Shown piece after piece: positions 1 through 51,913 of a stretch of 51,913 nt of DNA. The notes under the pieces are model-generated. The model made no database searches. It was not told the DNA's origin and saw nothing but the letters and a program-made list of their open reading frames with translations. The stretch is from Bacteroidota bacterium (GTDB lineage Bacteria; Bacteroidota; Bacteroidia; Cytophagales; Microscillaceae). The stretch is from contig RDXI01000018.1 of assembly GCA_004292795.1 (NCBI GenBank), positions 1 through 51,913 of the forward strand. The letters run 5' to 3'. The translations under genes were made by a program, and so were the position numbers. Each line of letters begins with the position of its first letter. Position 1 is the first letter of the stretch.

Positions 1-107
1 ATCAAGATATCGCCCCGCTGGGGCTTTGGAAGACTTAAACCGTTGTGCTACAAAGATGTCGCCCCGCTGGGGCTTGTATGCAACCTTTTTATTTCCGAAC
101 TCACGTT
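1..107. repeat. Left copy of a 76-bp repeat. The core is 32-107 and a degenerate partial tandem copy lies at 1-31. It contains the GC hairpin GCCCCGCTGGGGC. An inverted copy sits at the right window edge.
   Basis: Positions 32-107 equal the reverse complement of 51838-51913 with one mismatch (75/76). Positions 7-25 are a degenerate repeat of 56-75 (atatcgccccgctggggc vs atgtcgccccgctggggc). Similarity continues after an indel (aattgat shared). Confidence 0.85.
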
Positions 108-413
108 CAAAAAACGCAAGTAATTGATTTTCAGTATTTTATGTTTTTGATGAATTTTTGGAAGTAGGAAAAATATTTTTTAATTTTGCATCAAGTTAGT
201 CGTATGTAGGCAAGGCTTTGATTTTTGGCTATTTTTCAAGAAAAATAGTACGCGCTTCAGTTCTTGCAACTGCTTCATTATGAGGATTTTAGATTTGTTT
301 CTTGCCTGTAGGTGGGATTCTATTATGAAAGCCAATGATATACGAAAAGTTCGTGTATTAACGAGTTGGTGACAAGTTTGAAAATACTACAACAGTAAAC
401 AAAATCCTAAACT

Positions 414-1394
414 ATGTATATTTTAGATATAGAAAAACTAGAAGCAGGAGATATTTTTTTAACAAGGTCATCTTCAAGAGATAGCAAATTAATTAGGCAA
501 ATATCTCAATGTGATTATTCACATGCCATAATCTATGTTGGTGCTTCGAGTTGCATTGAATCTGATGGACTTGGAGTTCAATCGCAAAATATTCAGAGGT
601 TGTTATTTGAAAATGAAAGTGATATTTTAGTTTTAAGAGTTAAAGATGATAGTTTTAAAAAAATGCTTTCTGAGGTAATTGTATTCGCAAGGCAAAAAAT
701 AGGTACAGAATATTCAACTACAGAAGCAAAGCTTGCAAGATTAGAAAAAAACCTTTCTGCTAAAGAAACAAACAGGCAGTTTTGTACAAGGTTTGTAGCA
801 CAGGCTTACCAAAATGCAGGTATTCAAATAGTTGCTAATCCAGACTATTGCTCACCTAATGATATACAAGGTTCAAAACTACTTTCAATTACCAATAATG
901 TTTTGAGAGCAGCGTTAAAACTTGAAATTGATTTTGCAAAAAGTGAAAATCCTCTTGAAAAACAAAGAGATATTCATAATTTCATTTTTGAAAATTCAAG
1001 GATAGTTTCAGAACAAGATATTCAAACATTTGAACAATTATCAAAATACGTTTTAGAATACCCTGACAAAGAAAAAGATATTGTGGAAATTATTGAAAAA
1101 TCAGGGTATTTAGATATGTGGAAAGGTGATGTAGAACGTAATCCTTGGTATTATGATTATAAGGAGTTTCTAAAACACTATGCTAACCCAAAACAAAGGA
1201 AAGAAGTAGGCTATTTCTTTGCCACAACAGAAAAAGAAACAAGAGAAAGATATTATCAAACCTTGGAAACAGTGAAATTTGGATATTCTTTTTATGGACA
1301 AAAGTATTTTGAAATTCAGATAGAACTTTATAAGAAACTAATTGAACTAAGCGAAACACGAGAACTTGTTGGAATATTAGCACTGGCAAAGTAA
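414..1394 (+). CDS. YiiX/YaeF-like permuted papain-fold hydrolase (peptidase C92-like N-terminal domain) with a C-terminal domain of unknown function
   Basis: 326-aa ORF. His precedes Cys (GDIFLTRSSS...YSHAIIYVG, then QFCTRFVAQAYQNAG), as in the permuted NlpC/P60-like YiiX family. The gene is visibly AT-rich compared with its neighbours. Confidence 0.5.
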   Translation: MYILDIEKLEAGDIFLTRSSSRDSKLIRQISQCDYSHAIIYVGASSCIESDGLGVQSQNIQRLLFENESDILVLRVKDDSFKKMLSEVIVFARQKIGTEYSTTEAKLARLEKNLSAKETNRQFCTRFVAQAYQNAGIQIVANPDYCSPNDIQGSKLLSITNNVLRAALKLEIDFAKSENPLEKQRDIHNFIFENSRIVSEQDIQTFEQLSKYVLEYPDKEKDIVEIIEKSGYLDMWKGDVERNPWYYDYKEFLKHYANPKQRKEVGYFFATTEKETRERYYQTLETVKFGYSFYGQKYFEIQIELYKKLIELSETRELVGILALAK

Positions 1395-1466
1395 TCCCCT
1401 GTTCGTTTAAGTGTAACACTTAAACACAAAGGAATTGCGGTTTTTAATTGCTACGCCAAAGGCAAA

Positions 1467-1506
1467 AACACCGTACTAATTTGTTTTTAGTGCGGTTATT
1501 TTTTTG
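1467..1506 (+). terminator. Rho-independent terminator candidate downstream of the YiiX-like gene
   Basis: Stem aacaccgtact/agtgcggtt followed by tattttttt. Confidence 0.45.
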
Positions 1507-50155: not shown

Positions 50156-50165
50156 GAAATAAAAA

Positions 50166-51803
50166 CTATAAAGTGAATTTTTCAATCATTATCTTATCTA
50201 TCATCTCCACAATTTCATCACCTTGCTTGTTATCAAGAATTAAAAGTCTATAAGTATTATACAGTTCTAAAATTTGGCTAATTGTCTTTTCATCAAGTAT
50301 ACCTAAGTTTAGCATCATACCTTTGTTGATGTCATTAGGTTCAAATTTTTCCAATCCATTGCCATACTCTCTGCTATTATCTTTCAAAATTATTTTAGCC
50401 GTATTTGTTAAAAGGTAAGCAAATAACAAATCAATATTTATTTGTGAAAATAGATGGTTTTGGTTAGGATAAATGCAATGATAAGACGTGAGATTAGATA
50501 TATTTGCCTCATTTCTCACAAACCGCAAGCCTGTTCTATTAAAAACCGACACCCAAATAGGAGCGGGTAGTCTTTTTTCTAATGCGTACCAAGGCTTTCT
50601 ATTGGCAGTAAGAAATTTTTTATGTATATCTTCTGCCTCTCCTTTCTTGATATAATCCATAACCGCAGAATTATGGGCGTTTTGTGCGTTAAAGAGGAAA
50701 ACATACTTATCATTTTTTTGTAACTCTTCAAAATCTTGTATTGTAAAAAACGCATTTTTGGCATCAACAGCTCTACATATACAAGGTAGTAAAAACTCTT
50801 TAGATATTGAAAATTGTTCTGCCTTTGATGAGTTAAAAGTAAAGTATTCATTTGAGCCTGTAGCAATACCGCGAACTACTTTGGCATACATAGAAAAAGG
50901 AACAATGTTTTTGAAAATAGTTTTATTTTGTTTCTGATAATAGCTTTTCCATTTGATTTCTGGGTTAAGCTCTGTGATTTTGTATTTATTTTCGTTTGAT
51001 GCAGATAAAGAATAATTAGCGATAATCTCATCTATTTTGCTCAAATCTTGCAAAGAATGAATGTTGGTAAAACACACTTCATCTGTAAGGTTATCATTTG
51101 CACAAAAAATAATACAAGCAGTAGTTAGCGCATCATCAAATACATTTTCTTCAAAATTTATCACAATAATATGCCTTAAAACCTTACTCTTTATAAGAAA
51201 ATCTTTTACTAACTTACCATAATCAGAGTTAAGAAATTCAGAGGGTACTATATAAGCGCAACGACCATTTTTTTCTAATTGATAAATAGATTTTATCAAA
51301 AACAAGGTGTAAAGGTTTGTAAAACCATTTAATTTACAACTTGTTCTTATTTCAATTTCTTTGATGATATTTTTATTGTCATAATCGTGAAATTTGAAGT
51401 ATGGAGGGTTGCATATAATACCATCATACTTACTCTCCCAATCACTATAAATGTAATTTTCTAAAAAAATTGCTATACTATCAGTATTACAAAATATGTC
51501 TTTCGCATTATTAAAAATAATATCATCTACCTCAAAAGCCTTTATTTTAATGTCAGTACGATAACTCAATAAAATACGAGAAAATATACCAAGCCCCAAG
51601 GCTGGCTCTAAAACACTTTTCAAATCACTATTTCCCAAAACCCATTTAACCATTAAATTGGCTATGGGAAATGGGGTAAAAAATTGAGCAAATTTTTTAC
51701 GATGTTCTAACGAAGTCGTTTTTGCATACTCGTTTTCTATAGAGAGTTCTATTATATGTTCTTGCAACATTAGATGCATTATCTCTTGGTTCTGTAAAAT
51801 CAA
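50166..51803 (-). CDS. Gamma-class N6-adenine DNA methyltransferase (Eco57I/TaqI-like) with a C-terminal target-recognition region. No nuclease partner lies within the window.
   Basis: Motif X/I AQFFTPFPIANLM ... LEPALGLGIF. Motif IV ICNPPYFKF. Strongly AT-rich. Length 545 aa. Confidence 0.75.
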   Translation of the reverse strand: MILQNQEIMHLMLQEHIIELSIENEYAKTTSLEHRKKFAQFFTPFPIANLMVKWVLGNSDLKSVLEPALGLGIFSRILLSYRTDIKIKAFEVDDIIFNNAKDIFCNTDSIAIFLENYIYSDWESKYDGIICNPPYFKFHDYDNKNIIKEIEIRTSCKLNGFTNLYTLFLIKSIYQLEKNGRCAYIVPSEFLNSDYGKLVKDFLIKSKVLRHIIVINFEENVFDDALTTACIIFCANDNLTDEVCFTNIHSLQDLSKIDEIIANYSLSASNENKYKITELNPEIKWKSYYQKQNKTIFKNIVPFSMYAKVVRGIATGSNEYFTFNSSKAEQFSISKEFLLPCICRAVDAKNAFFTIQDFEELQKNDKYVFLFNAQNAHNSAVMDYIKKGEAEDIHKKFLTANRKPWYALEKRLPAPIWVSVFNRTGLRFVRNEANISNLTSYHCIYPNQNHLFSQINIDLLFAYLLTNTAKIILKDNSREYGNGLEKFEPNDINKGMMLNLGILDEKTISQILELYNTYRLLILDNKQGDEIVEMIDKIMIEKFTL

Positions 51804-51837
51804 CTAATTTTGTAGGCACTTGGCTTATCAATTCTTT

Positions 51838-51913
51838 AACGTGAGTTCGGAAATAAAAAGGTTGCGTACAAGCCCCAGCGGGGCGACATCTTTGTAGCAC
51901 AACGGTTTAAGTC
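51838..51913. repeat. Right copy of the 76-bp repeat, inverted relative to 32-107
   Basis: The reverse complement equals 32-107 with one mismatch. It lies 35 bp upstream of the methyltransferase start codon. Confidence 0.85.

Follow-up and report, generated by a model that had tools for sequence, protein, structure and literature searches.

Inverted hairpin repeats at the two ends of a Microscillaceae contig are members of a dispersed repeat family associated with IS200-like Y1 transposase genes

We analyzed a 51,913-nt stretch of DNA from a member of the Microscillaceae (Bacteroidota; contig RDXI01000018.1 of assembly GCA_004292795.1, forward strand), referred to here in its full length as the window, that carries an inverted pair of hairpin-containing repeats at its two ends. 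The repeats belong to a dispersed family of short hairpin units, mostly in head-to-tail doublets or arrays, that occurs in several bacterial phyla. Elsewhere, members of the family flank, in inverted orientation, genes for small IS200-like Y1 transposases, which are HUH (histidine-hydrophobic residue-histidine) enzymes.

The repeat copies at the ends of the window

The window contains two copies of the repeat, one at each end. A repeat search of the window identified the arms at 32-113 and 51832-51913 as an inverted pair of 82 nt with 96% complementarity. An earlier note on this DNA had described 32-107 and 51838-51913 as identical at 75 of 76 positions, with both copies pointing into the window; the sole mismatch is T79 versus C at 51866, and the inward orientation was confirmed by the sequence. 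A 28-mer of the shared tail occurred exactly twice in the window (0.00 expected, 100 shuffles), and the 17-mer hairpin core TCGCCCCGCTGGGGCTT occurred three times (0.08 expected). We scanned the whole window, with filters off, using a covariance model (R1) built from Y1-adjacent metagenomic units only and without any sequence from the window. The model matched at 48-81(+), 51864-51897(-) and 4-32(+), the next best match in the 51.9 kb had 10.2 bits and an E-value of about 0.8, and no family member was found in the interior. The features at the two ends are as follows.

4..32, + strand: first, untagged hairpin unit of the left doublet (R1 16.6 bits, E=0.02; hairpin predicted), with stem 12-16 (GCCCC), loop 17-19 (GCT) and stem 20-24 (GGGGC)
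27..47, + strand: inter-hairpin spacer of about 21 nt (hairpin start-to-start 49 nt)
48..81, + strand: second, tagged hairpin unit of the left doublet (R1 34.7 bits, E=5e-7), with tag CTACAAAGAT 48-57, GTC 58-60, stem 61-65, loop 66-68 and stem 69-73
74..107, + strand: 34-nt tail TTGTAYGCAACCTTTTTATTTCCGAACTCACGTT, common only to the two window copies (from the sequence and the repeat search)
414..1394, + strand: Peptidase_C92 (YaeF/YiiX-like) gene (Pfam PF05708, E=1.7e-11)
50166..51803, - strand: Eco57I-type N6-adenine methyltransferase gene, with an NPPY motif (Pfam PF07669 and PF22837)
51832..51913, - strand: right copy, inverted (R1 32.8 bits, E=1.5e-6), with tagged unit 51864-51897, tag 51888-51897, stems 51880-51884 and 51872-51876, and tail 51838-51871

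The left copy is a doublet. The segment at 4-32, previously taken for a degenerate tandem half-copy, is really a regular hairpin, the first of the two that make up the unit: hairpin 2 is identical to it (GCCCC-GCT-GGGGC) and follows it head-to-tail. The unit consists, in order, of hairpin 1, a spacer of about 21 nt, a CTAYAAAYAT tag, 3 nt and hairpin 2. The right arm stops exactly at base 51913, inside the doublet spacer, and its first hairpin is not visible. The tail TTGTAYGCAACCTTTTTATTTCCGAACTCACGTT is specific to a subfamily and probably part of the copied unit. The resumption of similarity after an indel that the earlier note had described beyond the tail is based on a single AT-rich 7-mer (AATTGAT) and is indistinguishable from chance. 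The outer stem bounded by GTTG and CAAC that it had also described is predicted in the window copy, but the matching flank positions are variable across the family alignment.

Members of the family in other genomes

The repeat is widespread. We scanned one genome per prokaryotic species for the exact core ATRTCGCCCCGCTGGGGCTT and found it in at least 115 stretches. In Poribacteria there were several loci per chromosome; the matches listed also include Flavobacterium, Hymenobacter, Chitinophagaceae, Spirosomataceae, Saprospiraceae, Ignavibacteriales, Angelobacter (Acidobacteriota) and Pirellulales. The same architecture was found in Poribacteria, Bacteroidota, Acidobacteriota, Planctomycetota and Ignavibacteria. 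Among the possibilities raised in the earlier note, a dispersed family resembling REP (repetitive extragenic palindromic) sequences or MITEs (miniature inverted-repeat transposable elements) was the correct one. In viral contigs, the core 20-mer had only three matches, all from one source genome, indicating that the repeat is not phage-borne.

The listed copies have a common layout, CTAYAnAY-AT-NNC followed by a 5-bp stem, a loop of 3-5 nt and the complementary stem. The conserved tag, CTA[CT], sits 8-10 nt 5' of the stem and reads on the other strand as [AG]TAG, 8-10 nt 3' of the hairpin. Head-to-tail doublets or arrays accounted for 121 of 177 copies, with a modal start-to-start distance of 50-51 nt (49 in the window). 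When copies were listed with their flanks, the spacers were similar within subfamilies, and the doublet therefore looks like a copied unit rather than two independent hairpins.

Some Poribacteria carry larger arrangements. There are tandem arrays, including one of at least 11 units at a 50-nt period (L081:5751-6284). At four loci (L047, L054, L084 and L108), the doublet is flanked by a longer sequence (CTGTTTTAAGAGT..GTGAAACGGTCATCTTT) that is present as a direct repeat, one copy on each side. The repeat units may thus be composite, or a repeated sequence may be a preferred target.

A Y1 transposase gene lies between inverted copies of the repeat

Members of the family were associated with genes for a small Y1 transposase. 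We collected the nearest open reading frames (ORFs) on both sides of each genomic copy (235 ORFs in 192 clusters) and scanned the recurrent clusters against Pfam. Most neighbors were unrelated metabolic genes. The only scanned cluster that pointed to mobility and spanned distant lineages was a Y1_Tnp protein of about 150 amino acids (PF01797, E-values 1e-24 to 1e-29), encoded at four loci: one in Poribacteria, one in Hymenobacter, one in another member of the Bacteroidota and one further locus (L083).

The four proteins are IS200-like. All of them passed the NCBIfam model NF033573 (transpos_IS200) with 71-80 bits (cut-off 55), and all fell below the cut-off of NF047646 (REP_Tyr_transpos) with 32-37 bits (cut-off 80). 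The closest chains in PDB were IS200/IS605 TnpA proteins (2fyx, 2xm3 and 2a6m; IS608 and ISDra2). The proteins have the motifs DH[IL]H, WQ and YIE[NRT]Q..HH (e.g., YIENQEEHH) and a conserved C-terminal tail, and the invariant positions of their alignment are D54, H55 and H57, W95 and Q96, and Y115...Q119..H122 and H123. Judged by these motifs against Table 1 of Quentin et al. 2018 (PMC6006769), the protein would belong to their subclass 1.2.

The arrangement of the repeat around the Y1 gene was consistent. At all four genome loci, reversed hairpin units were found upstream of the gene and a forward doublet was found within about 30 nt past the TGA stop, starting 3-8 nt past the stop in three of the four. 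We also approached the association from the protein side, using the four Y1 proteins as queries on metagenome contigs. At least 572 of 600 candidate stretches encoded relatives, and we analyzed the best 80 of these as independent loci (57-92% identity). A forward CTAY-tagged hairpin was present within 200 nt past the stop at 54 of the 80 loci, and a reverse-oriented tagged hairpin within 400 nt upstream at 63, compared with 16 and 18 loci for the opposite orientations and a background of 0.095 tagged units per kb-strand at more than 1 kb from the gene. The median distance from the stop to the start of the first hairpin was 15 nt. This inverted flanking is the layout of a REPtron and not that of the co-oriented ends of an IS200 element.

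The layout bears on a different reading of the doublet, as a miniature element of the IS200/IS605 type, similar to a PATE (palindrome-associated transposable element) or MITE, with hairpins 1 and 2 as the left and right ends of a peel-and-paste unit, in place of a domesticated system of the REP type. Such an element would fit an enzyme closest to true IS200/IS605 TnpA proteins, two hairpins in direct orientation like the ends of those elements, spacers that are homologous among the copies of a subfamily, and a 34-nt tail past the second hairpin that both window copies share. However, the hairpins at the 63 upstream and 54 downstream sites form inverted sets around the Y1 gene and are not co-oriented, the copy number and the between-copy identity are reported to be low for the subclass (Quentin et al., PMC6006769), and neither empty and filled sites nor element ends were defined. 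We consider it unlikely that the doublet is an element of this kind.

Two Y1 loci have additional features. In Poribacteria, an array with a 116-nt period lies beside the Y1 gene (L031, 5928-6307 and 7777-7926). In a Hymenobacter metagenome-assembled genome (L035:3336-4172), the Y1 gene and its downstream doublet are about 30 nt upstream of the RNase P RNA gene.

The hairpin is conserved as a structure

The stem of the repeat is constrained to pair, and its sequence is free to vary. We anchored sequences by the tag alone, as a safeguard against circularity, and found a perfect 5-bp stem at the expected place in 110 of 128, in contrast to 0.8% after the tails were shuffled. In an alignment of 60 units, 95% of the cells paired, all five stem pairs varied on both sides (e.g., GCTCC, GCGCC, GCCCC, GCACC, ACTCC and GCCTC), and pairing fell to 29-51% in all slid registers. 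None of 500 shuffles reached the covariation score. HUH enzymes that act on single-stranded DNA, such as IS608 TnpA and E. coli TnpA_REP, recognize a selected hairpin of this kind, in which the geometry is fixed and the stem sequence is free.

The hairpin variant goes with the locus. At 21 of 48 loci, the stems on the two sides of the Y1 gene were identical, compared with 8.8 +/- 2.3 under permutation of the loci.

Other identities for the repeat were tried and rejected. No Rfam RNA family matched over the repeat, either in the whole window at the gathering score, in a permissive search of 1-400 or at 10 repeat-bearing loci. The repeat is not a mini-array of clustered regularly interspaced short palindromic repeats (CRISPR). 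Such arrays have three or more direct repeats of 23-50 nt, separated by unique spacers of comparable length, and usually cas genes in the vicinity. Here, two units enclose a single spacer of about 21 nt that is homologous from copy to copy, cas genes are absent, and the only match to a CRISPR model (128-161, E=7.8) is off the repeat and at chance level. The RYYYAAC and GTTRRRY cores of an integron attC site, checked by eye, fit neither strand. A 5-bp stem that is not followed by a run of T residues is not like an intrinsic terminator.

Gene context of the repeat in the window and elsewhere

Both copies in the window are upstream of a low-GC gene that reads away from the copy, as the earlier note had stated. 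The Peptidase_C92 gene begins 340 nt 3' of the second hairpin of the left copy (stem end 73), and the methyltransferase gene, which as called in L118, a second assembly from a related strain, starts at about window position 51770, reads away from the right copy. The GC content is 0.31 at 114-1400 and 0.30 at 50166-51831, compared with 0.417 for the whole window.

The methyltransferase gene is strain-variable. It is missing in a related strain (L119, 97.7% identical up to window position 50181), which has a CbiA/ParA-like ATPase and a 259-amino-acid hypothetical protein in its place (L119:1-2090 compared with window 50156-51831). The switch is about 25 nt past the stop of the WG-repeat gene (window 50155), and identity ends at 50181. 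The repeat may simply be persisting at the edge of a variable islet.

Taken by themselves, the two window copies each precede a low-GC accessory gene in the same orientation, and one of these genes varies between strains. They could be read as cis-acting expression elements (promoters, insulators or structures of the 5' untranslated region) that arrive together with horizontally acquired low-GC genes or are recruited for them. The earlier note had raised promoters or insulators for acquired genes as one possibility and had proposed looking at the position of other copies relative to gene starts and low-GC genes. The data do not support such a role as a property of the family. Among 185 copies from other genomes, 177 were intergenic, and by a crude ORF caller that counted both hairpins of a doublet there was no bias toward gene starts: 18 copies were between convergent ends and 15 between divergent starts, and in unidirectional contexts the copies were antisense about twice as often as sense (73 versus 34). 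Nor were the flanks GC-poor: the flanking kilobase on each side differed from the rest of the locus by a mean of -0.4% GC (n=34). Copies are also found in the long L081 array, directly after stops and beside the RNase P RNA gene, and there was no match to an Rfam family. It is quite improbable, in our view, that the repeat is an expression element for the genes beside it.

The bracket and a probable assembly break

The symmetry of the window is most likely a consequence of assembly. L118, a Logan contig assembled independently from another sample and run, has 98.6% identity to the window and begins within the right copy, at the tail. A break at this place is expected, since this is how a k-mer assembler behaves at repeated sequence. 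Look-ups by exact protein, used to extend the ends of the window, gave only short Logan contigs, none of which crossed the repeat. The simplest reading of the edges of the window is that it is a contig and that the repeat determined where it ends. On this reading, the bracket is symmetrical because the contig ends in the only two copies that it contains, their opposite orientation is a matter of even chance, and it is incidental that they lie upstream of two low-GC accessory genes.

The inverted copies might instead be the functional ends of a 51.8-kb composite mobile element or of a segment of that size that inverts. Homologous recombination could occur occasionally between inverted arms of 82 nt at 96%, and there are accessory genes just inside both ends. 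The interior, however, consists of housekeeping chromosomal DNA in which several small islets of low GC lie apart from each other. Its genes include trxB, gcvP, miaB, glgB, lysS, SusC/SusD, a P-type ATPase, an adenylate cyclase and a GldM-like gene, among others, and they support the remark in the earlier note that a housekeeping interior argues against one 52-kb mobile element. There is no transposase, invertase or integrase in the window; Pfam detected no transposase or recombinase domain among its 37 ORFs, and tblastn with the Y1 proteins found no Y1 homologue in it. Moreover, the two arms are typical of a family that is found elsewhere in very many copies, the right arm is cut by the window edge, which makes the exact bracketing a sampling effect, and L118 is in the same orientation as the window. 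We regard a 51.8-kb element as very improbable.

Based on these results, we believe it quite likely that the two arms are separate members of a dispersed, REP-like family tied to a Y1 transposase and that they bracket the window because the assembly broke there. Several points weigh against this conclusion. No pair of filled and empty sites was found, and we therefore infer mobility from the association only. The association with the Y1 gene could instead reflect repeats that accumulated near the gene. The window 28-mer had no matches in the metagenomes of the Joint Genome Institute (JGI), the left end of the window had no plasmid match, the count of copies in the source organism covers the 51.9-kb window only (two doublets), and the gene-context counts are as coarse as the ORF caller described above.

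In the mechanism that we propose, the repeat family would be the cognate single-stranded DNA substrate of the small IS200-like Y1 (HUH) transposase, whose own gene lies between inverted copies in a REPtron-like arrangement. The enzyme would bind the hairpins on single-stranded DNA and cut and rejoin near the tag, and its action would spread or maintain the doublets in intergenic DNA. Because the window has no Y1 gene, the enzyme would act in trans on the copies found there.

Other genes and repeats in the window

Three low-GC islets of the defense type lie within the housekeeping DNA (16152-18178, 20765-22291 and 39285-41447). They contain a GmrSD_N and HEPN (RiboL-PSP) pair, an AAA_15/AAA_21 ATPase, and two tandem YhcG/DUF1016 PDDEXK nuclease paralogues beside a helix-turn-helix gene. 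On the minus strand at 4274-6808, a bacterial protein of 844 amino acids that is homologous to the major vault protein of eukaryotes (MVP_shoulder, Vault_3 and Band_7) is encoded next to the adenylate cyclase and the GldM-like gene. The gcvP gene (13157-16064) is split between overlapping ORFs, 13157-15046 in one frame and 14937-16064 in another, reflecting a frameshift, a pseudogene or an assembly error. A DUF805b RNA motif (Rfam RF02914, 44.8 bits) lies at 38722-38757 on the minus strand, upstream of a 184-amino-acid ORF (38145-38699) that had no Pfam match. A search of the window for tRNA and tmRNA genes found none.

The window also contains other repeats. Between lysS and an FGE-sulfatase gene (43201-43481), there are 42-nt tandem units bearing the palindrome CTATAGCTTTTTCTTGTGAAAAAGCTATAG. 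The intergenic region is 285 nt in the window (about 6.5 units) versus 137 nt in L118 (about 2.5 units), and the copy number of the array is therefore polymorphic. A second family, with the look of canonical REPs (TGTAG directly followed by the hairpin GGGCAACC...GGTTGCCC), is represented by a single copy after the Peptidase_C92 gene (1949-1980) and, just after miaB, by a perfect 29-nt inverted pair with a 43-nt spacer (20749-20849), an arrangement like that of a REPIN (REP doublet forming a hairpin). Hairpins with the arms GCAGGCAAG...CTTGCCTGC recur at gene ends (38064-38108, 40297-40333 and 41437-41476; also 8954-9028 and 10910-10948), accompanied by many CTTGCCT motifs, and two 38-mers (8198-8235 and 10776-10813) are 95% identical. 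These hairpins and 38-mers look like a further genome-specific repeat family.

Novelty and significance

The link between the repeat family and this Y1 subclass appears to be undescribed. A limited literature search found no paper describing the repeat or its connection to a Y1 gene, and the core sequence had no literature match and is absent from the supplements of Quentin 2018. We tentatively suggest that the doublet and the subclass 1.2 Y1 enzyme constitute an undescribed REPtron-type system that crosses phyla, in which a class-1 enzyme maintains or spreads 5-bp hairpin doublets. The system would be a possible intermediate between IS200 and the RAYT (REP-associated tyrosine transposase)/REPIN systems, with the window containing two non-autonomous copies that border strain-variable islets. 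We judge the chances of this whole proposal to be slightly less than even.

As a feature of the window, the bracket is ordinary: dispersed repeats have this effect on short-read assemblies, and no mobile or invertible unit of 52 kb is needed to account for it. The wider interest is in the enzyme, as an orphan group of IS200-like Y1 proteins gains a concrete and very widespread DNA partner. If this link holds, this group of enzymes would have a defined substrate for biochemical tests, a head-to-tail architecture would be added to the REP/REPIN repertoire, and a frequent cause of contig breaks in metagenome-assembled Poribacteria, Bacteroidota and Acidobacteriota would be explained.

Comparison with known systems

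A composite transposon or invertible segment combines terminal inverted repeats with a transposase or invertase and cargo. The window has no such enzyme, its interior is housekeeping DNA and its right arm is cut.

The CGTC-tagged REPs are similar to the repeat in having (C/T)GTC directly 5' of a GC-rich hairpin (here ATGTC-GCCCC), and they have been reported in Bacteroidetes among other phyla, without a known dedicated transposase (Di Nocera et al. 2013, PMC3733652). They differ in having 8-9-bp stems that start with A-T, 4-5-nt loops, mostly head-to-head dimers and a CCA tail, none of which is found here.

The repeats of the REP/REPIN-RAYT systems of E. coli and Pseudomonas are also short extragenic hairpins with a conserved short tag beside the hairpin and frequent dimers. 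Canonical REPs have many copies per genome; for this repeat, several loci were listed per Poribacteria chromosome, and the 51.9-kb window has two doublets. However, in canonical REPs the tag GT[AG]G is 0-2 nt 5' of the foot of the hairpin and inverted dimers predominate, whereas here CTAY is 8-10 nt 5' of the stem and the head-to-tail doublet is dominant. Head-to-tail dimers are absent or rare in GTAG and CGTC REPs (Di Nocera 2013, PMC3733652). The stem of this repeat, at only 5 bp, is also unlike that of REPs, and the enzyme has the class-1 signature (Y---Q--HH), is below the REP_Tyr_transpos cut-off, and is not a class-2 RAYT (Y---NP). The resemblance to a REPtron is in the single small HUH-Y1 gene between inverted repeats, with hairpin variants that differ between Y1 loci.

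The system shares with IS200/IS605 elements and PATEs the PF01797 Y1 HUH transposase, an agreement at the level of the protein family, and the direct hairpins of the doublet. IS200/IS605 elements are excised and inserted as single-strand circles, 3' of a target tetranucleotide. In these elements, end hairpins on the same strand flank tnpA, whereas here the gene is outside the doublet and between inverted sets. In addition, we found here no tnpB and no multicopy, identical elements that carry the gene.

The proteins also agree with subclass 1.2 of Quentin 2018, which is characterized by the HUH motif DH[IV]H, WQ, Y---Q--HH, a length of about 148 amino acids and a specific C-terminal domain (PMC6006769). 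The proteins described here have the corresponding HUH, WQ and Y---Q--HH motifs, about 150 amino acids and a C-terminal tail, and they too occur in Bacteroidetes. As published, subclass 1.2 is listed without REPs, generally without terminal hairpins and without the properties of insertion sequences (Quentin 2018, PMC6006769), in contrast to the tagged 5-bp hairpins that we found on each side of the gene in 54-63 of 80 loci. The RNAMotif rules used in that study required basal stems of 7-20 nt (PMC6006769), which is probably why 5-bp hairpins were missed. The taxonomic spread that we observed, with Poribacteria, Acidobacteriota and Planctomycetota, is also wider than that published for subclass 1.2.

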